This document shows, in pieces, positions 29,392 through 59,879 of a DNA stretch of 64,000 nt (within the stretch, counting starts at the first letter, position 1; each line of letters starts with the position of its first letter). A model generated the notes under the pieces. It worked only from the letters and a program-made list of their open reading frames with translations. It was not told the origin of the DNA and made no database searches. Made by a program: the position numbers and the translations under genes. Source of the DNA: an uncultured Candidatus Saccharibacteria bacterium (GTDB taxonomy: Bacteria; Patescibacteriota; Minisyncoccia; Phycocordibacterales; UBA5272); assembly GCA_964491805.1 (NCBI GenBank), contig CAZBGU010000001.1:1446-65445 (forward strand). The letters run 5' to 3'.

Positions 29392-30111
29392 ATGTGGACA
29401 GCAAAACTTCAGCACAATAATAGGACAGAAGGAAGCGATGAAGGGTATAAAGGAATTCCTATTTTTGCTGGTTACAAGTTACACGAAACTTCATTTAAAA
29501 TTTTTACAAAATATTGCAAGGATACAAACGCGCGTATTCTTGTCTTGGGTGCTGGTGCTGGTGCGTTCGACCAGAGGTTGATAGATCATAATTTCAAAAA
29601 TATTCTTGCTGTAGAGTATCACAAAGAAATATACAGACCAGATGCTGAGGTCGTAAGCAGGGACCTCAATGAAGACTTTAACGATCTTGGACTGTTCGAT
29701 GTTGTTATCGCAATAGAAATAATCGAACACATCGAAAATCATTTTCATTTTGTAAGACAGATAAAGGATTTACTTAAGGATGATGGCGTGGCACTAATCA
29801 CTACGCCAAATGTTGAGAGCCCTATTTCAAGGATTAAATTTTTCTTACGTGGAGATCTCAGTTGTTTTACTCCTCACGAGATTAGTGACACCGGTCACAT
29901 AAATCCAATTTTTAAAAATATTTTTGTTGCACATCTTAAGAGTTGTGGATTGCGCCTACGGGAAGTTGCATACAGTACTACGTTGTGGGACATGAATCAG
30001 TTCTCTGGAATCACCCAGAAGCTATCCATGATTGTATTTAGAATTATGTCTTTGGTGATGCGAAATAAAACCGGGGGACAACTGTCTATCTTTGTTATCT
30101 CAAAAGAATAA
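29392..30111 (+). CDS. Class I SAM-dependent methyltransferase
   Basis: 'ILVLGAGAGAFD' motif I, 'LITTPNVE'. The start is uncertain. Confidence 0.5.
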   Translation: MWTAKLQHNNRTEGSDEGYKGIPIFAGYKLHETSFKIFTKYCKDTNARILVLGAGAGAFDQRLIDHNFKNILAVEYHKEIYRPDAEVVSRDLNEDFNDLGLFDVVIAIEIIEHIENHFHFVRQIKDLLKDDGVALITTPNVESPISRIKFFLRGDLSCFTPHEISDTGHINPIFKNIFVAHLKSCGLRLREVAYSTTLWDMNQFSGITQKLSMIVFRIMSLVMRNKTGGQLSIFVISKE

Positions 30112-30145
30112 TTTAAGACCCGCTTGTTTTACTTTCTGATATATT

Positions 30146-30922
30146 TTATGGTCGAATCAGGATTCTGATTGTTCTCATGCATATGTATATCCAAAATGTC
30201 GGATGAGTTAGAAGTCTCGCTTCTTTGCTTTCATATATAATTGTCAATAAGGTCTCTAACTGTTGTGTACGAGATCGCTTCCTAAAATTAAGACCGTCAG
30301 TTGAGTCGTAGCCGTCAGTGATGGTGCTGTTATGGTCGTGGTAGTAAGCTCGCTCATAAAGACCAAGTTGGAAGAAAAAAAACCATTCGTCTGCTTGTTT
30401 TACGTGATTCAAAAAGTGTATCTTGTTATGATCTATACATTTTTTTTCTATACAGTGTGTAACATCACCTTTCCATCTCCTCAGTATTAAGTAGTCTTTT
30501 GCATATAAATAGAATTTCTCGTCTCCAGGAAGCGATGAGATTGGCTTGCCATTTGTGTAGGCGCGATTCGTTATGAACCACTTTGTGTCACTATGGAGAA
30601 GGATTAAATCATGGAATGTTTGGAGTGTGTCAGGGGAAAAGTAGTCATCATCATCAAGGAAAATAATCCAACGCGAATCGGCAGATGTGTATTTAATTGC
30701 CTGGTTTCTGGTATAGTTGACGCCCTTGTTAATTTCGTTGACATGATAATGTATACGAGGGTCGTTAATCGATGAGGCAAAGTTCGTGTAATGAGTGTCA
30801 CTCGGAGAATCATTAACAATGATCATCTCCCAATGCTTATACGTTTGGTTTCTCAAGGAGTTAACCGCCCTCTCTAGACGGTCTGCACGCTTATAAGTTG
30901 GTGTGATGATACTAAAGAGCAT
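30146..30922 (-). CDS. Glycosyltransferase family 2
   Basis: 'FSIITPTYKRADRLERAVNSLRNQTYKHWEMIIVNDSPSD'. Confidence 0.75.
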   Translation of the reverse strand: MLFSIITPTYKRADRLERAVNSLRNQTYKHWEMIIVNDSPSDTHYTNFASSINDPRIHYHVNEINKGVNYTRNQAIKYTSADSRWIIFLDDDDYFSPDTLQTFHDLILLHSDTKWFITNRAYTNGKPISSLPGDEKFYLYAKDYLILRRWKGDVTHCIEKKCIDHNKIHFLNHVKQADEWFFFFQLGLYERAYYHDHNSTITDGYDSTDGLNFRKRSRTQQLETLLTIIYESKEARLLTHPTFWIYICMRTIRILIRP

Positions 30923-30932
30923 AGTAAGATAG

Positions 30933-31661
30933 TTAATCGAACCCTAAGATTTTTTTAAGAAGTGATTTTATTTTCAATTTTTCTGTTACTTTCACACCGA
31001 ATGAGTGGAGTCCAGTTTTCTTAAAAAATTTATTGAGTGGATTTCCCCATGAGTAGTTCCACCAGTGTACTGAGTATGTTTCATCTTTAATGTCTTTGTA
31101 GGAAAAATTTTTTATAGTTTCTTTGCTGTATGGATAAAATGCCGTATGTGTATAGATATGAACACCATCGATGTCCTGTTCTTTTTCTGTGAGTGTCCCT
31201 GCGTCAAGTTTTTGCTTTAAGAGTTCTGTCATTATGACTGGTGTCGGGGTTCTTGGGTGATCACCGTCATACCACTTGAGTGCACGTTCAACAAAAGGGT
31301 GGTTAGGTTCTGCTCCCATCATCGCATTATTAATATATGTAGAGTCTTCAAAACCCATGAACGCTGCATGTGAGAGCAGAGGGGAAATGTCTCGAACGAG
31401 TTCCATGTCAGTATCTACATAGACACCCCCCATCTTCTTTAGTACATCAAGACGCACAAAATCAGAAACGAAAGCCCACTTTTTTGCAGCAAGTGCATCT
31501 TTTGCATACTTTGGAGCCTTGCTTAGGTCGTACGTGTCCTCGTTCCACTCCATGATTTGCCAGTCAGGGCAATATGTTTCCCAGCTTTTTATACATCGTA
31601 GGATTAGTTTATCCTTTGGGTTTCTTCCAAACCAGCAATAGTGAATAATTTTTGGGATCAT
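30933..31661 (-). CDS. GT32-like glycosyltransferase (DXD), paralog of 17453..18166
   Basis: 'MIPKIIHYCWFGRNPK', 'YVDTDMEL'. Start chosen at MIPKIIH. Confidence 0.55.
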   Translation of the reverse strand: MIPKIIHYCWFGRNPKDKLILRCIKSWETYCPDWQIMEWNEDTYDLSKAPKYAKDALAAKKWAFVSDFVRLDVLKKMGGVYVDTDMELVRDISPLLSHAAFMGFEDSTYINNAMMGAEPNHPFVERALKWYDGDHPRTPTPVIMTELLKQKLDAGTLTEKEQDIDGVHIYTHTAFYPYSKETIKNFSYKDIKDETYSVHWWNYSWGNPLNKFFKKTGLHSFGVKVTEKLKIKSLLKKILGFD

Positions 31662-31829
31662 AAAATATAAGTTATATGTCGAAAGTATACCATTTAGCTG
31701 CTGAACTTCTCTGTGTAGTAGTGTTATTATTATTTTGGCAAAAAACAAACCACCCTGGTAATAAATATGCTCTATGATACACTTCATTCATTATTCCGTA
31801 TAATCAGGTAAAAAGTAGTAATTTTACGT

Positions 31830-34058
31830 ATGCAAAATTTTATAAAGAAAGCTGTGTGGTTGTGTCTTGCTATTGTGCCATTTATTGTGCTGCATGTTGC
31901 AGACGGGGGGCTTTTTGATGTGCTCAGTTGGTTTGGTGGATCAGGAATGTTCTTCCCATTTATTTCCGGGAAGAATCTTATATTTAGAATTCTCGTAGAA
32001 ATTGCATTTGCAGGATGGGCAGTTCTTGCTTTGTATGACTCTTCATATCGAATTAATATTAGAAAATCACCGATAATGATTGCGTACGGACTTTTCATTA
32101 TTGTTTTGCTTCTTGCTGATATTTTTGGTGTTGATCGTGAGAAGAGTATGTGGAGTAACTTTGAAAGAATGGAAGGATTTGTTGGTCATATCCATTTCTT
32201 TGCGTACTTCTTCGTTCTGACTGTTATGATTCGCACACTGCAGGATTGGCAGAAGTTGTGGAAGATGTTTATCGCTGCTGATGTTCTTGTTCTTTTGTAT
32301 GCGATCGGGCAGTTTCTTGGTGCAAAGGGGCTTGTTTTCTCTAATAATTTTCCAAAAGCAGCAGAGTGGTTTGCATCGCGATTTGCTGTGCACATGAGTG
32401 AAAACAGACTTGATGCAACGATCGGTAACTCGGCGTACTTTGCTATCTTCTGTCTCATGTATGTGTTCCTCGCTGCACTGCTCTGGTCTCAGTCTAAAGA
32501 ACCAAAGAAGCAATGGTTCTATCCTGTGCTTATGTTTGTTAACACGCTTGGTGTTCTTTACTCTGGAACGCGTGGAACAATGATAGGTTTGATTGTTGGT
32601 GCTTTTGTTTCACTCGGTATCATGGCATGGAAAGAGAAAGGCAGTTCGGGTTCTCTTATGAGAAAAATTTTTGCAGTGGCTTCCATTGCTTTAGTCCTCT
32701 TTATTTCTTCGGTTTTTATCTTTAAGAATAGTGCGTTTGTTAAGTCTTCTTCAGTTCTGACACGTATTTCGACTATTTCTCCTCATGACATTACAGGTGC
32801 AAGTCGACTTTCTATGTGGCAGATAAGTTTTGAAGCGTGGAAGGAGAGACCGCTTCTTGGGTATGGACAAGACAACTTTAGCTATGTATTTGCTCGCAAG
32901 TTTCTTCCAGAGAGAATGTGTAACCTTGAACCATGGTATGACAGATCTCATGATGTGTTTTTTGATTGGTTAGTTGCCGCCGGCACATTGGGTCTTTTAA
33001 CGTATCTTTCTTTGTACGGAGTTACGTTGTGGTTTATGTGGAAGAGAAAAGATCATTCAATGCCTCTCTCTGAGAAAGCGATTTTGACGGGTATGATTGT
33101 CGGTTACTTCGTTCATAATGTTTTCGTTTTCGATAACCTTACAAGTTATATTCTCTTCTTTGCCCTCTTAGCTTATATTACTGTTAGGACACGAGAAGAA
33201 TTACCCTCGCACGGTCACCCACTGTTTGATATGGACCAGATGAATCTTCTTATTGTTCCTGTCATAGGTCTCACACTCCTTGTTACTCAGTACTACGTTA
33301 ACTATAGACCTCTAGTTGTAAATCGTCTTGTTATTAAAGCTATGAGCTTTAGTAATTACGCAAAGACGATGCCATTTGCAGATGCTGTTAAAATTCAACA
33401 AAATGCATTTACAGATGCAATAGCAATGAATACGCTTGGAAGTATTGAAGCTCGTGAGCAGTTCCTTCAGATGTCTGTGCGTATGGCACAAATCAAGATC
33501 CCAGATACTCTTCCAGCAGGGGAGAAACAAGCAACAACACAAGCTCTAAACAACCTCATGCTTGCTGCAAGGAATGATGTTGAAAAATCATACCCTTCAT
33601 ACAATGAAGATGTTCGTATGCTTTCGATTTATGGACTTTTCTTTAACGGTATCGGAGACTCTGCTTCTGCAGAAAAAGTGCTCAAGGAAGCGATTAAATA
33701 TGCTCCTAATAAGCAGCTTGTTGCATATGATTTGATTCGCGCCTATCTATTGCAAAGAAAGTTTGCAGATGCATATGCGCTTGGCCGTACAACGTACGAT
33801 CTTTCAATCACATGTGCAGATGCACTAAGATGGTATCTCGTTAGTGCTTCTTATGCTGGTCAGTATATGGAGGCGAAAGCGTACGCTGCATCAAAGGGGC
33901 AGAACCCACCTGTTGACCAGGATGTCATTGCTGGAGTTCTTAATTCAGGTCAGATTTCTCTTGGAATAGAACTTCTCAACCAGCTCAAGAAATCTGATCC
34001 AAGCCTTGCACCTCAAATTGACGCGTATATAAAACAACTGCTTGTCCAAAAGAAATAG
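31830..34058 (+). CDS. O-antigen ligase/Wzy-family membrane protein fused to C-terminal TPR repeats
   Basis: Multi-TM. 'YSGTRGTMIGLIVGAF' Wzy_C-like motif. C-terminal ~250 aa TPR-like helical repeats. Confidence 0.6.
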   Translation: MQNFIKKAVWLCLAIVPFIVLHVADGGLFDVLSWFGGSGMFFPFISGKNLIFRILVEIAFAGWAVLALYDSSYRINIRKSPIMIAYGLFIIVLLLADIFGVDREKSMWSNFERMEGFVGHIHFFAYFFVLTVMIRTLQDWQKLWKMFIAADVLVLLYAIGQFLGAKGLVFSNNFPKAAEWFASRFAVHMSENRLDATIGNSAYFAIFCLMYVFLAALLWSQSKEPKKQWFYPVLMFVNTLGVLYSGTRGTMIGLIVGAFVSLGIMAWKEKGSSGSLMRKIFAVASIALVLFISSVFIFKNSAFVKSSSVLTRISTISPHDITGASRLSMWQISFEAWKERPLLGYGQDNFSYVFARKFLPERMCNLEPWYDRSHDVFFDWLVAAGTLGLLTYLSLYGVTLWFMWKRKDHSMPLSEKAILTGMIVGYFVHNVFVFDNLTSYILFFALLAYITVRTREELPSHGHPLFDMDQMNLLIVPVIGLTLLVTQYYVNYRPLVVNRLVIKAMSFSNYAKTMPFADAVKIQQNAFTDAIAMNTLGSIEAREQFLQMSVRMAQIKIPDTLPAGEKQATTQALNNLMLAARNDVEKSYPSYNEDVRMLSIYGLFFNGIGDSASAEKVLKEAIKYAPNKQLVAYDLIRAYLLQRKFADAYALGRTTYDLSITCADALRWYLVSASYAGQYMEAKAYAASKGQNPPVDQDVIAGVLNSGQISLGIELLNQLKKSDPSLAPQIDAYIKQLLVQKK

Positions 34059-34336
34059 TGATGATACACTAGAGGGGTGAGTGCACAAAGGTGTGCCCTA
34101 CAAGATAAATAAATGCCTGCATAAAGAGTCATCGAAAGATGGCTCCTTATGTTTTTATATGTGCGTAATCTTGTTGTGATCATATTGTTCTAATCATCTT
34201 TTAATCCCTTGAACGAAAAAGAGAAACCTTGTACACTAGTATTCGTGGTCATCCACTTCGCAAGTAATTGCGGTGGGCGACTGCGCTCACATAAGGCATT
34301 TATCTTTGGAGCATGCCACGCTCACCACAATTGTGT

Positions 34337-34397
34337 GCGAGGCAAATAAAACCACTCACGGTCGCGTTGCGACCGTGAGTGGTTTTATTTGCCTCGC
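34337..34397. repeat. 61-nt perfect hairpin (29-bp stem, 3-nt loop) inside a GC-rich ORF-less island
   Basis: gcgaggcaaataaaaccactcacggtcgc, then gtt, then gcgaccgtgagtggttttatttgcctcgc. No downstream T-run. Confidence 0.7.
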
Positions 34398-34449
34398 GCC
34401 CTTGCTTGCTATTCGATATATATATACTTTATTTGTCTAACGTATATAT

Positions 34450-35095
34450 ATGACAAATCCAAACTTTAATATAGACGGTTTTTCTTTGGAGACGCCTGAC
34501 CAGGCGGAACTGCGAGTAAAAGGACCTCCTAATGCCCCTAAGGTTTCAAAGAATCCAGAGGCAGAAAATGAAAAGTATATAATTCGACCAATAAAAAGTG
34601 CACCAGCAAGTGAGGAACGTAGGACAGCGATATTAGAGCAAATTGGCCCTGGTACAAAAAAAACCTGAAGTACAACCGAACATTGTAGAACCTCCACGTG
34701 AAGAACCGACAACGTATGATGATCGTAAACTATGCCAAATAGCAGAGGGTTTAGGTTATGATAGAGCAAGAATAGTTCGGCTTACTCCATCCGAGATTAG
34801 ATATCGTTTTGATACTCTTTATCAACATAATCGGAAAGAATGGTCTGGAGCGACCGCACTTGGAACTTTTACTGTAGCTGCAACTGGTGGGATACTTGCT
34901 ATCGGTTCGTCTGTCCCTGGTTCTGCCTTTGCGGTGTCTTCATTGCTTGCTGCACCACTTGCGATGCCTACGTTTCTTGTGGGTTCTGCATTATTGTTGG
35001 GTGGAGGTATGGCACTTGGTGCCGGGTATCAAATATTTAAATCATGGAAAAATAGAAGAAAAGCTGACAAAGCGCTTCAAGAAGGAGGGTACTAA
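34450..35095 (+). pseudogene. Hypothetical membrane protein gene split by a frameshift at an A8 run (ORFs 34450..34668 and 34643..35095)
   Basis: A7 instead of A8 at 34656-34663 would fuse the two ORFs into one ~214-aa protein with C-terminal Gly/Ala-rich TM helices. Confidence 0.4.
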
Positions 35096-35175
35096 AAAAT
35101 TAGTAACAATCAGAATTACTATAAAAGCAAGGATTTGTTCGCTTTTCTCATGCCTATTACCACCTAATACTTAGT

Positions 35176-36357
35176 CTAGCACTCCCCAACTGACCATGAT
35201 CCGTTTGCGGTTATTTTTACTTTTGGTGATTCGTCCTCCGCAATGTGGAGTAGTCCTGTTGCTGCAATCATGAGGCCGTTATCAGTGGATAAGTTGCGGT
35301 TAGGTATAAAGAGGCTGAATCCTTCTGCTTCTGCAAGATGTTTGAGCGCAAATCTGACATGTGAGTTAGCACTTACTCCGCCGCCAACAATCAGTGTCTT
35401 GGCACGTGTCTCGTACATTGCTTGGCGTACTTTGTGTATAAGAACATCAGTGACCGCATTTTCAAATTCTAGCGCAAGCATTCGTTTCGTTCTGTCGTCG
35501 AGATCTCCTCGTTTCTTTGTTCGTGTGAGAACTGCAGTCTTAAGACCGCTAAATGAAAAATTAAGATCACCGCTATGGAGCATGGGGCGAGGCAGTCTCA
35601 AGTCCTCGTCAACCACTAGACCTTCCTTACGTGCGTGTTCTGCAAGGCGGGATATTTCTGGGCCGCCAGGGTACGGAAGATCGAGCATACGTGCCGCTTT
35701 GTCGAAAGCCTCTCCAACTGCGTCATCTTTTGTTTTACCTATTACTTTATATGATCGAAGTTTTGGTACATGCACAAGTTCTGTGTGTCCACCTGATATA
35801 AGGAGTGCACACGCAGGTAAATCTATATCTGATATTTCATAAGTATCTTCTGTGACAGAAATGAGCCCAGCAACGATGTGTCCTTCCATGTGATTGATAG
35901 GGTATACAGGTACGTCCCATAGAAGTCTGAGAGCAAGGGCAGCGTTAACACCAACCCATAGTGCTGGCTCAAGTCCTGGTCCTTGGGTAACTGCGATAGC
36001 GTCGATTGCTGGCTTTTGAATACCTTCGAAGAGTACTTTCATTGCTGCTAGCATTTCTGGTTCTCGCTCAAGAAGGGTCTCGAGCTTTTTTCTTTCTGCG
36101 TTAGGAATGTGGTAGGTGTTGGTTCGTTCCGTTATGAGTTCTGCTTCGCCAAGAGCTTCAGCAATGAGTTGCGTAATGGCTTTCGTATGTTCGCGTTTCG
36201 CTAGAGCCGGGAAGACGCCACCATACTGTGCATGGAGGTCAATCTGAGAAAGGATTTTGTGTGACAATACTTCGAATCGTACCTGTTTGCCACGAACACG
36301 CTTCACAAGTGAAATAGCTGTCTCGTCGCAACTCGTTTCGATAGCAAGGAGGATCAT
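35176..36357 (-). CDS. tsaD: tRNA N6-adenosine threonylcarbamoyltransferase TsaD
   Basis: 'MILLAIETSCDETAISLV' and Kae1/TsaD-family motifs throughout. C-terminal extension relative to typical TsaD. Confidence 0.85.
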   Translation of the reverse strand: MILLAIETSCDETAISLVKRVRGKQVRFEVLSHKILSQIDLHAQYGGVFPALAKREHTKAITQLIAEALGEAELITERTNTYHIPNAERKKLETLLEREPEMLAAMKVLFEGIQKPAIDAIAVTQGPGLEPALWVGVNAALALRLLWDVPVYPINHMEGHIVAGLISVTEDTYEISDIDLPACALLISGGHTELVHVPKLRSYKVIGKTKDDAVGEAFDKAARMLDLPYPGGPEISRLAEHARKEGLVVDEDLRLPRPMLHSGDLNFSFSGLKTAVLTRTKKRGDLDDRTKRMLALEFENAVTDVLIHKVRQAMYETRAKTLIVGGGVSANSHVRFALKHLAEAEGFSLFIPNRNLSTDNGLMIAATGLLHIAEDESPKVKITANGSWSVGEC

Positions 36358-36453
36358 AATGTTTGACAGTATATCAAATTTACTAGTAATGGTGTTAGTT
36401 TGCAGATTTCTGTGCGCTTGTCCAAAGAGTAACTCTGTTGTAGAGTTGGTGGT

Positions 36454-36900
36454 ATGAAATTAGTAATTCTTAGTGTTGGTAAAGAAAAGGACGAAGTAAG
36501 TGCTGAACTTGTTCGACATTTTGAACTTCGCCTCCTTAGATACCTCCCTGTTGAATGGTTGCATGTTGACCATGCGGCAACAAAAGAAAAAGAAAGTGAA
36601 AAGATTCTTAGCCTTCTTAAGAAGGAGGATTATGTAGTTCTTCTTGATGAAAAGGGGAGAGATATGAAAAGTGAAGCACTTGCTGAAATGGTAGAGAATC
36701 GTATGGTTGATTCTGTAAGGCGTATGATCTTTATTATTGGTGGAGCCTACGGTGTTTCTGAGAATGTGTTCGCACGAGCTAACTATATTTGGAAGCTCTC
36801 GTCACTTGTGTTCCCTCACATGCTTGTGCGTATTATTCTTGTTGAGCAGCTCTACCGTGCGATGACCCTTTTGAAAGGAGAGAAGTATCATCATGAGTAG
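36454..36900 (+). CDS. rlmH: 23S rRNA (pseudouridine1915-N3)-methyltransferase RlmH
   Basis: SPOUT 'IFIIGGAYGVSENV', C-terminal 'LVRIILVEQLYRA...GEKYHHE', RlmH-like. Confidence 0.85.
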   Translation: MKLVILSVGKEKDEVSAELVRHFELRLLRYLPVEWLHVDHAATKEKESEKILSLLKKEDYVVLLDEKGRDMKSEALAEMVENRMVDSVRRMIFIIGGAYGVSENVFARANYIWKLSSLVFPHMLVRIILVEQLYRAMTLLKGEKYHHE

Positions 36901-36942: not shown

Positions 36943-37018
36943 TGGTGGACAGTAGAGGATTCGAACCTCTGACATCTACAACGTCAATGTAGCGCTCTAC
37001 CAACTGAGCTAACCGTCC
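36943..37018 (-). tRNA. tRNA-Val (anticodon GAC), CCA encoded
   Basis: The reverse complement folds as GGACGGT/ACTGTCC acceptor, anticodon loop TTGACGT, T-arm AGAGGTTCGAATCCTCT, then CCA. Confidence 0.85.
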
Positions 37019-37128: not shown

Positions 37129-37203
37129 GGCCCCATCGTCTATCGGTTAGGACATCGGCTTTTCATGCCGGTAAGCGGAGTTCGACTCTCCGTGGGGTCA
37201 CCA
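37129..37203 (+). tRNA. tRNA-Glu (anticodon UUC), CCA encoded
   Basis: GGCCCCA/TGGGGTC acceptor, anticodon stem TCGGC/GCCGG with loop TTTTCAT, T-arm CGGAGTTCGACTCTCCG, then CCA. Confidence 0.85.
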
Positions 37204-37752
37204 ACAGGTCTTTATTGACCTTAAATTCTTCTGAGAGCTTGAAAACTAAAGATAGTTTTGGTGTTCCACTAACTAATTCTGTATAGGTTGGAAGTTCATC
37301 AAAGAAAAGGGTACATACTGAAAACCGGCTTCCATTTTAAAATCTCTTTTTCCAAGGTGTTCCACTCTAGGACGTATCGGCTCACAAATAGTAACAAAGC
37401 GGTCGTTGAAGCACTCAAACCCCTTTTTGCACTTATATCTCAACGTGGATCTTAAAGTCAGGTGGTTATGTCATCATTTCATTACTCCATCCAGATTACT
37501 GTAGAAAAGAGTTAGGGAGTAAGGGGTTGAAAGCAGTAGAGGGAACTCCTATGGAAGTAAGTGTATTCGGAACAACTCTTCACTATTTTTATCACGAACT
37601 TGAAGCGTATCTTGGTGAGGGGCTATATGCCGTTTCTTTACACCAAGCAACAAAATTCTCAACGTCAGCTTCTTCAAGCTCCATTTTTTGGTTGCGATAT
37701 TTGCAGCATTCTTCTGTTATTTTCCTGATATAACAGAAGAAATTATTTATAG

Positions 37753-37780
37753 AAAAAGCCCTACCGAAGTAGGGCTTTTT
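37753..37780. terminator. Bidirectional intrinsic terminator
   Basis: aaaaagccctac cgaa gtagggcttttt, with A/T runs on both sides. Terminates the minus-strand gene 37798..38286. Confidence 0.6.
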
Positions 37781-37797
37781 CGCACTGCGTTCCCTGC

Positions 37798-51695: not shown

Positions 51696-52499
51696 ATGTT
51701 TACTTGGTTCTCTCGTAAGAAAATGACTGAATCTCGTAGTTCGGAGAAAAAAGATGATGGTTTTATATCTCTTGCTTCTCATGAATTGCGTTCACCACTG
51801 TCTATAATCAAATGGTATACAGAGATTCTTCTTGACGAAGATGCTGGCCCACTCACTAGCGACCAACGTAAGTATCTTATGACCATAGAATCAAGTAATC
51901 AGCGCGCAATTGATCTTGTTCGGTCTTTACTAAACGTATCCAGGTTAGACCTGGGTACGTTTAGTGTTTCACCTGTCAGTCTTAACATTGCAACTATACT
52001 CACGGAAGTTGTTTCATCTTTTAGCAAAGAGATGGAAGTAAAACACCTTGAGGTAATTAATAGTGCCAAGGATGTAAAGAATATTCTTGCAGACAAAAAT
52101 CTTTGTACGACTCTCGTTAAGAATGTTATTGCAAATGCAATCTCATTTTCAAGTAATGGGGGAAAGATTTTCATTGACACATCAGTTGTGTCTGCATATG
52201 AAAAGATCGGAGAGGTGACAGTTAACGAAGAAAGTATTCTTTTTTCTGTTAGAGATACCGGTATCGGTATACCTGAGGCAGATAAAGATAAGGTTTTCAC
52301 GAAGATGTTTAAAGCAGGGAATGTTAAGGATTCTGATAGTACAGGTTCTGGTCTTGGGTTATATATTACAAAAAGTATTCTCGATTATGTTGGTGGTACT
52401 ATTTGTTTCACTTCGACAGAAGGTGAAGGTTCAACTTTTTTTGTGACTTTGCCTACAAGAGGTATGGAAAAGAAAGAAGGAAGGACGACACTGGATTAA
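51696..52499 (+). CDS. Sensorless histidine kinase (HisKA + HATPase_c only)
   Basis: H-box 'ISLASHELRSPLSII'. G-boxes 'DTGIGIP', 'GSGLGLYI'. No TM or sensor domain. Confidence 0.75.
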   Translation: MFTWFSRKKMTESRSSEKKDDGFISLASHELRSPLSIIKWYTEILLDEDAGPLTSDQRKYLMTIESSNQRAIDLVRSLLNVSRLDLGTFSVSPVSLNIATILTEVVSSFSKEMEVKHLEVINSAKDVKNILADKNLCTTLVKNVIANAISFSSNGGKIFIDTSVVSAYEKIGEVTVNEESILFSVRDTGIGIPEADKDKVFTKMFKAGNVKDSDSTGSGLGLYITKSILDYVGGTICFTSTEGEGSTFFVTLPTRGMEKKEGRTTLD

Positions 52500-52610
52500 G
52501 TACAACCGTTAATTAGTAACTCTTAACTGTTTGCTTAACATAATCAAAAGCACAACACTTCTGTGTTGTGCTTTTGTTTTTGGAGTACACTTTCTCGACA
52601 AGGGCTTTCT

Positions 52611-58077: not shown

Positions 58078-58173
58078 TAGCTTGTAGCTGTTAGTAAATA
58101 CGAAGCAATCTCCAAAGGAGATTGCTTCGTATTTTGTATATGTATGGCTACGAGCTAAAGGCTACTATCTGCC

Positions 58174-59755: not shown

Positions 59756-59879
59756 ACTACAATATGTTTAGAAGTAAGTAAATAGATCTACTTTTACTGT
59801 ATGTAATGTAAACAAAAACACAGCGCGACGAGCTGTGTTTTTGTTGTAGAAGCAGGTTGCTTGGCGTACCTTTCCTATG

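Follow-up and report, generated by a model that had tools for sequence, protein, structure and literature searches.

The 64,000-nt stretch of DNA analysed here (hereafter, the window) carries a long perfect hairpin at positions 34337-34397, within a 391-nt intergenic gap that extends from a gene with Wzy_C and TPR domains assigned by Pfam (31830-34058) to the next ATG (34450). Two small RNA (sRNA) genes, here termed sRNA A and sRNA B, appear to lie in this gap in tandem on the plus strand, and the hairpin very probably represents the terminator of the second. Further downstream, tsaD (35176-36357, minus strand; Pfam TsaD, 7.9e-76) is oriented convergently with sRNA B. The gene order Wzy/TPR, sRNA A, sRNA B, tsaD (minus strand) is conserved in related genomes, with variable spaces after both sRNA terminators. 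An earlier sequence-only reading had described an ORF-poor, GC-rich island of ~380 nt behind a Wzy-TPR gene. Its length and its upstream neighbour agree with our measurements, and the description as poor in open reading frames (ORFs) is correct for real genes, although mechanical ORFs of 46 and 55 amino acids cross the region. As to base composition, 34200-34399 is weakly GC-rich (0.485, as compared to 0.37-0.45 in the surroundings), but 34000-34299 is not (0.38).

The closest relatives of the encoded TsaD (92-53% amino-acid identity) stem from metagenome-assembled genomes labelled Paceibacterota, Nomurabacteria, Parcubacteria and, in some cases, Saccharibacteria. We therefore assign the window, with ~40% GC, to a chromosome of the Candidate Phyla Radiation (CPR)/Patescibacteria (Paceibacteria). 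The relatives compared below come from 80 loci of a species-representative genome collection, found via tsaD, none of which (0/80) is identical to the window. An independent Logan assembly (SRR12487046; L083) matched the window with 100% identity over 34304-34700, and the palindrome is thus not an artefact of a single assembly. Two independent short-read assemblies of the organism break within the sRNA genes, L001 inside sRNA A (34134) and L083 inside the sRNA B loop (34304), as expected if co-occurring relatives share near-identical sRNA sequences that tangle the assembly graph.

A conserved structured RNA precedes the hairpin

Nucleotide comparison (blastn) with the 80 loci revealed ~34224-34351 to be retained at 80-97% identity in ~29 relatives, with the flanking protein genes at ~70-75%. 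For the 89 nt of 34256-34344, identities of 80-97% extend to 33 related genomes. This conserved block ends within the 5' arm of the hairpin, at ~34351. A candidate promoter on the plus strand (34209-34237) consists of a -35 box TTGAAC (34209-34214), a 17-nt spacer and a -10 box TACACT (34232-34237), and places the predicted start of sRNA B near 34244. Position and spacing of these elements are kept in the window plus 21 of the 27 untruncated relatives, with the consensus TTGnnn-17-TAYACT across relatives. The remaining ones keep the -10 box, and there the sRNA A terminator takes the place of the -35 box.

The RNAalifold consensus folds the core of sRNA B (34256-34344, 89 nt, plus strand) into a long hairpin composed of helices P1, P2 and P3 and capped by an apical loop of 20 invariant nt, ACAUAAGGCAUUUAUCUUUG (34289-34308). 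Within this structure, 97.3% of cells pair, and double changes affect 12 of the 26 pairs (45 cells). Of 500 shuffles, not one reached any of five pairing measures, and slid partners paired in 35-50% of cases. The predicted fold of the terminated RNA adds a 5' mini-hairpin, GUGG-UCAU-CCAC (34245-34256, plus strand), which likewise covaries, for example to GUAGG-AA-CCUAC in L011 and L012. Folded as a whole, the terminated RNA (34244-34388) is predicted to comprise the 5' hairpin, the P1-P2-P3 rod and the terminator, at -75.3 kcal/mol.

A model of sRNA B (R1) matched the window exactly once and likewise gave a single copy in each of 34 loci. Its score in the window was 111 bits on the plus strand and 28 bits on the minus strand, and U.G and G.U pairs are frequent in the core; on these two grounds, the strand of sRNA B is fixed. 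Five distant loci, scoring 48-57 bits, have changed stems and keep the loop CUCACAUWAGG(A)CAUUURU..UUGGAG.

As the region contains ORFs at 34209-34349 and 34273-34440 and ends shortly before a gene, it could in principle encode a small protein or act in cis as a leader or attenuator of the gene at 34450. The 46-amino-acid ORF is rich in Cys and His, spans the core and has a similar counterpart in L028, and the hairpin lies 53 nt upstream of the ATG on the same strand. However, one-base insertions or deletions within the core, found in 15 of 28 sequences, break the frame and leave the downstream nucleotides conserved, which excludes the 46- and 55-amino-acid ORFs and identifies the core as non-coding. 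Substitutions in the core follow base pairs rather than codons, and the start of the ORF would fall in the -35 box. As for a leader, the gene at 34450 is missing from all relatives, in which the RNA points towards the 3' end of tsaD. We thus regard both forms of this explanation as highly improbable.

Taken by its sequence, sRNA B would be a strongly conserved structured non-coding RNA outside all Rfam families. In a scan of the whole window at the gathering threshold, Rfam 15 returned two tRNAs and nothing else, so that the Rfam search suggested by the sequence-only reading yielded no family here. When the window and two relatives were scanned locally under permissive settings, the outcome was sub-threshold noise of microRNA-like or terminator-like kind, with no consistent family. 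The sRNA B loop was absent from viral contigs (IMG/VR). In its length of ~100-150 nt, very high conservation, rod-like fold and single copy per locus, the candidate resembles the signal recognition particle (SRP)/4.5S and 6S RNAs, yet no Rfam 15 family reaches its gathering score for sRNA B. By eye, neither the helix 8 motif with its GNRA cap, typical of SRP RNA, nor a central bubble like that of 6S RNA is evident in it. SRP RNA, 6S RNA, pieces of transfer-messenger RNA and fragments of RNase P were considered by eye and dropped, as none had model support; this includes a few short words presumably shared with the M1 RNA of E. coli.

The same comparison bears on the view that the palindrome is unique and unconserved and that the region merely forms the 3' untranslated region (UTR) of the upstream gene. 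The stem sequence is indeed unique and unconserved, but its structure and position are conserved, and since the gap holds two tandem genes, it is not the 3' UTR of the Wzy gene. Among the options listed in the sequence-only reading, a processed sRNA stem came closest: the hairpin would be the 3' stem of a conserved sRNA gene.

The hairpin has the anatomy of an intrinsic terminator

The hairpin consists of two arms of 29 nt each (34337-34365 and 34369-34397), which are 100% complementary and enclose a 3-nt loop, exactly as had been reported. When one G.U pair is counted, the stem (34335-34399) comprises 31 uninterrupted pairs, whereas 1000 shuffles of the same 87 nt yielded stems of 6.4 +/- 1.3 pairs and a maximum of 13. 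The second-longest hairpin of the 64-kb window has 18 pairs. By itself, the hairpin has a folding energy of -55.3 kcal/mol.

Read 5' to 3' on the plus strand, it is built as GCGAGGC-AAATAAAA-CCACTCACGGTCGC-gtt-GCGACCGTGAGTGG-TTTTATTT-GCCTCGC. Its 5' end, GCGAGGC, is the 3' strand of helix P1 of sRNA B. There follows an A-tract (34344-34351), which mirrors the U-tract and pairs with it, and then the GC-rich 5' arm (34352-34365), the loop GTT (34366-34368) and the GC-rich 3' arm (34369-34382). The two GC-rich arms form a 14-bp core, directly 3' of which lies the U-tract (34383-34390); GCCTCGC (34391-34397) is the outermost 3' segment. The core together with one flanking A-U pair and the U-tract (34351-34388) is predicted to fold at -28.9 kcal/mol. 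Pairing runs 7-9 bp past the A- and U-tracts (GCGAGGC/GCCUCGC) and takes in the 3' strand of P1, and it is because of this extension that the hairpin looks 'too long and perfect'. The terminator scan flags the site, and the U-tract TTTTATTT sits directly behind the GC-rich core; the hairpin had been described as lacking a U-tail, which we could not confirm.

An equivalent hairpin of different sequence occupies the same place in all relatives (33/33). In each of them, an uninterrupted stem of 9-28 bp directly follows the core of the RNA, reaching at least 13 bp in 30 of the 33. Its layout is that of an A-tract, a variable GC-rich apex and a T-tract, with no relationship between the apex sequences of different genomes. 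Summed over all stems, we counted 589 Watson-Crick pairs, 24 G.U pairs on the sRNA strand and 7 A.C juxtapositions; this preponderance of G.U over A.C fits selection on the plus-strand RNA.

Together, a GC-rich stem-loop, a U-tract directly 3' of it and, upstream on the same strand, a conserved promoter and structured RNA suggest, with high confidence, that the hairpin is the Rho-independent terminator of the unannotated sRNA B gene. The dismissal of a terminator on grounds of length and perfection is therefore not upheld, given the full terminator anatomy and the equivalent hairpins in 33 relatives. A-rich tracts before terminator hairpins have been described as the hallmark of bidirectional terminators and as possible partners of the U-tract (PMC12207403). 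Such an A-tract mirrors the U-tract in the window and in all relatives. In 27 relatives, the tsaD match ends 36-184 nt from the end of the sRNA B core. As the hairpin alone separates sRNA B from the convergent tsaD in these genomes, it should stop transcription from both sides. In the window, a gene on the same strand intervenes between the hairpin and tsaD, which is 778 nt away.

The hairpin thus shares with intrinsic bidirectional terminators the GC-rich stem, the U-tract directly after it and the mirrored A-tract before it, the position between convergent units (sRNA B and tsaD) in relatives, and a structure that is kept while the stem sequence varies freely. Unlike these, it has 29-31 uninterrupted pairs, as opposed to 11-18 in the other terminator-like hairpins of the window, and the paired region reaches beyond its A- and U-tracts to include part of the body of the terminated RNA. 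Other perfect intergenic hairpins, 13-18 bp long and with A- and T-runs that mirror each other, are present at 58096-58134, 59811-59845, 52545-52576 and 37752-37781; these four are probably bidirectional terminators of like design. A further hairpin of 18 pairs (including G.U), TACTAAACGTATCCAGGT/ACCTGGGTACGTTTAGTG at 51928-51966, lies inside an ORF (51696-52499) and has no T-tract.

In the mechanism that we propose, transcription would start near 34244 at the conserved TTGAAC-17-TACACT promoter, and the nascent RNA would fold into the 5' mini-hairpin and the long P1-P2-P3 hairpin with its invariant 20-nt apical loop. The 14-bp GC-rich stem (34352-34382) would form next, and RNA polymerase would let go of the transcript in the U-tract UUUUAUUU (34383-34390), giving rise to an RNA of ~145 nt. 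The mirrored A-tract would lengthen the stem and make the terminator usable from both strands, so that in relatives the same hairpin may also close the convergent tsaD unit.

Several observations weigh against this proposal. The palindrome extends 7-12 bp past the U-tract in the window, L022, L007, L013, L025, L010, L034 and L014. Plain termination leaves this extension unexplained, as an RNA that ends in the U-tract cannot contain the 3' extension. The sigma-70 scan called neither the sRNA A nor the sRNA B promoter (8 of 12 positions matched, at a threshold of 9). The evidence for bidirectional use is indirect in the window, with tsaD 778 nt off, and it is from the sequence that we infer the transcript of sRNA B and its 3' end. 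Also to be counted here is the proposed pairing of sRNA A with sRNA B described below: their complementarity is AU-rich, its two registers fit about equally and, among close relatives, it could partly be inherited rather than selected.

As an element, the hairpin is of an ordinary kind, namely an intrinsic terminator of the bidirectional type that happens to be unusually long and perfect. For the screening of genomes, this implies that pairing between the A- and U-tracts of an ordinary terminator can produce a palindrome that seems 'too perfect'. It was the conserved sequence adjoining the hairpin that proved informative, and the value of the hairpin is that of a pointer to the sRNA.

Pairing beyond the U-tract

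What, then, accounts for the extension? One explanation, which would add to the terminator reading rather than replace it, assigns the long stem a role at the RNA level beyond termination. Read-through RNA would form a duplex of 29-31 bp at the expense of P1, whose 3' strand is drawn away from the sRNA body, and this duplex would mark the read-through RNA for cleavage by RNase III or switch the fold off. In line with this, the read-through RNA is predicted to lose P1 and the terminated RNA to keep it. Pairing past the T-tract into the conserved core is seen in at least eight lineages with different sequences: the stem comprises 31 pairs in the window, 28-30 in L022, 33 (with wobbles) in L007 and 23 each in L013 and L025. 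The ratio of 24 G.U to 7 A.C on the sRNA strand points in the same direction. However, this ratio could also come from keeping U in the U-tract of the plus strand, and the extension is evidently not required, being absent in L011, L012, L015, L019, L020, L021 and L024. We hold such a role to be rather doubtful.

Alternatively, the perfection and growth of the palindrome may be a mutational by-product, arising in the absence of selection for the extra pairs. During replication, intra-strand template switching copies one arm of a hairpin from the other, which re-perfects and extends the hairpin. The 589 Watson-Crick pairs as opposed to 31 transition mismatches, despite complete sequence turnover between relatives, would be accounted for in this way, as would the direction of change, in that the complement of the conserved core always overwrites the non-conserved 3' flank and never the reverse. 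Yet compensatory evolution that selects a stable terminator would give the same picture, and the bias of G.U over A.C argues for some selection at the RNA level. On balance, we consider a purely mutational origin unlikely. Re-perfection by mutation and a role of the RNA duplex are non-exclusive explanations of the extension. The repeated growth of terminator palindromes into the body of an RNA provides a small and tractable case in which to set selection against template-switch mutation.

The hairpin is unlikely to be a dispersed repeat or a recombination site

Long perfect palindromes in intergenic regions also occur as repetitive extragenic palindromic (REP) elements or miniature inverted-repeat transposable elements (MITEs), and the sequence-only reading had listed a REP- or MITE-like element among its options. 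We found a single copy of the arm in the 64-kb window (allowing up to 3 mismatches). A 22-nt segment of the arm had one chance match in metagenome contigs of the JGI and none in viral contigs (IMG/VR). The sole metagenome match (L082:5297-5318) lies on an unrelated GC-rich contig with proline-rich-looking repeats and has no second arm. Relatives carry different stems at the same spot, and no flanking direct repeats were found. The hairpin thus resembles REP elements, bacterial interspersed mosaic elements (BIMEs) and MITEs as an intergenic palindrome near a gene end, but differs from them in being single-copy in the window, in having neither a related family nor terminal repeats or target duplications, and in its non-conserved stem. 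That it is a copy of a dispersed repeat is therefore extremely improbable.

A second possibility is that the hairpin serves as a site at the DNA level, either a target of recombination or insertion or a protein-binding palindrome, at the edge of inserted DNA. Conservation with relatives stops inside the 5' arm at ~34351, adjoining a 778-nt stretch between the sRNA B terminator and tsaD that contains an orphan gene and is found in no fetched relative; other insertions stand beside both sRNA terminators in relatives. Against this, an equivalent hairpin is present in relatives that lack this insertion, and the stems, not being conserved in sequence, offer no common recognition sequence. Of eight neighbouring ORFs scanned (29392-36900), none (0/8) matched a recombinase or transposase family, and direct repeats around the inserted stretch were not found. 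We judge a DNA-level site to be very unlikely, and the earlier suggestion of a recombination or protein-binding site finds no support here. An origin as a replication-related hairpin, also proposed, is not borne out either, with no change in skew at the site.

Hairpins of the integron attC type were considered separately and rejected. An attC hairpin is imperfect, with conserved core sites (RYYYAAC/GTTRRRY) and extrahelical bases, and lies next to an integrase. The stem in question is perfect and free of bulges, shows no RYYYAAC or GTTRRRY ends by eye and is accompanied by no recombinase match.

The sequence-only reading had asked whether synteny breaks at this point. It does: a lineage-specific gene follows the hairpin in the window, and the break reflects insertion beside a terminator rather than a property of the hairpin. 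The orphan gene (34450-35095, plus strand) lies between hairpin and tsaD, and its reading frame is interrupted by a frameshift at eight consecutive A (34656-34663); with seven A, it would encode 214 amino acids with a hydrophobic C-terminus. The A8 run is identical in the independent Logan assembly, and the gene could be a pseudogene, a phase-variable gene or a site of slippage. Pfam gave no match to it, homologues were absent from all relative loci fetched, and megablast of 33000-36000 for phage DNA gave no match.

The TA-rich stretches that had been noted after the hairpin are present and form an imperfect inverted repeat on the plus strand (34411-34431/34438-34458; 81% complementary; fold z = -2.0). 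Both a TATACT hexamer (34423-34428) and the ATG of 34450 fall within this repeat, which is absent from relatives and probably provides the inserted gene with its promoter and start region, outside the sRNA. Between the orphan gene and tsaD (35096-35175), no convincing terminator was found, and tsaD transcripts may run antisense across the orphan gene up to the hairpin. Extra genes also occur between sRNA A and sRNA B in two relatives, namely at L003:7417-8028 (an ORF of 203 amino acids) and L028:7456-8516 (ORFs of 168 and 177 amino acids). The spaces after both sRNA terminators thus seem to be hot spots for lineage-specific genes.

sRNA A is complementary to the apical loop of sRNA B

Upstream of sRNA B, a second candidate promoter on the plus strand (34042-34070) overlaps the final codons and the stop of the Wzy/TPR gene. 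It is composed of a -35 box TTGTCC (34042-34047), a 17-nt spacer and a -10 box TACACT (34065-34070). The pattern TTG-N20-TACACTA has two sites in the window (34042-34071 and 34209-34238), where 0.23 would be expected by chance. TTGnnn-16/17-TAnnnT was found in 23 of the 28 A-region sequences scanned; of these 23, 21 belong to relatives in which the hexamers occupy the aligned position. The predicted sRNA A (34076-34156, plus strand) is conserved in 28 relatives, at 40-86 bits with model R2. This is a sequence-only model, since RNAalifold on a MAFFT alignment of sRNA A gave a poor consensus, and its hairpins are described here from single-sequence folds and inspection. sRNA A comprises a 5' hairpin (34076-34101), a conserved single-stranded linker, AAGAUAAAUAAAUGCCU (34102-34118), and a terminator stem-loop (34120-34151) that is flagged by the terminator scan and followed by the U-run UUUUU (34152-34156). 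The upper stem of the terminator varies between genomes. In the distant group, weak copies of sRNA A are located ~75 nt upstream of sRNA B.

The linker of sRNA A is complementary to the apical loop of sRNA B (AGGCAUUUAUCUU), and the two RNAs would thus likely form a duplex of 13-16 bp. Predicted duplex energies range from -8.7 to -17.1 kcal/mol in all 26 genomes (26/26), as compared to ~-4.5 +/- 2 for shuffled linkers. Changes on one side are met by changes on the other: UAUCUU in sRNA B accompanies AAGAUA in sRNA A, whereas UAUUUU accompanies AAAAUA; GGCACUU is matched by AAGAGCC in L025 and L024, and AUUUGU by ACAAAU in L029. An insertion in the distant group is compensated as well, sRNA B GGC becoming GGAC and sRNA A GCC becoming GUCC, with a duplex of -20.1 kcal/mol. 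Among seven haplotypes, cognate pairs averaged -14.2 kcal/mol and non-cognate pairs -10.9 kcal/mol, and the most divergent sRNA A pairs best with its own sRNA B. Because sRNA A contains a tandem AAAU motif, a contiguous register and a register with a 4-nt bulge describe the pairing about equally well. When the window was searched for other targets of the sRNA A seed or the sRNA B loop, only chance-level matches emerged.

With a promoter and terminator of their own, a conserved exposed seed and a complementary partner, both candidates have the features of base-pairing sRNAs, and sRNA B probably acts in this manner, in which case one sRNA would antagonise or guide the other. In several respects they resemble trans-encoded sRNAs and their antagonists (sponges, anti-sRNAs), each having its own promoter and intrinsic terminator and a short exposed sequence as its most conserved segment. 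The 13-16 nt of complementarity between the loop of sRNA B and the linker of sRNA A, with compensatory changes, further recalls the loop-to-linker antisense pairs of plasmid copy control. Unlike antisense pairs, sRNA A and sRNA B lie in tandem on the same strand; unlike loop-to-linker pairs, the sRNA B loop is conserved well beyond the needs of mutual pairing; and, unlike the trans-encoded sRNA systems compared, the host is a CPR bacterium.

Apart from the universal ones, non-coding RNAs described from Paceibacteria and other CPR bacteria are, to our knowledge, few. A literature search for non-coding RNAs of CPR/Patescibacteria found nothing relevant, and sRNA B thus appears to be undescribed so far. 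The pair is more strongly conserved than the proteins around it, which points to control by RNA or to a novel ribonucleoprotein in CPR bacteria. As a tentative proposal, which we advance with low confidence, the two RNAs may constitute a hitherto undescribed module specific to Paceibacteria. In this module, the linker of sRNA A would dock onto the 20-nt loop of the rod-shaped sRNA B, and the over-long terminator would switch the fold of read-through sRNA B and thereby disable it. If so, the bulged sRNA A:sRNA B duplex would be a platform for a housekeeping or regulatory ribonucleoprotein in reduced genomes. The covariation-supported structure and the mutual complementarity provide concrete models for annotation and for searches of metatranscriptomes.

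As to the two tRNA genes detected in the Rfam scan, tRNA-Val(GAC) (36943-37018, minus strand) and tRNA-Glu(TTC) (37129-37203, plus strand) are divergently oriented and situated just past rlmH (36454-36900).

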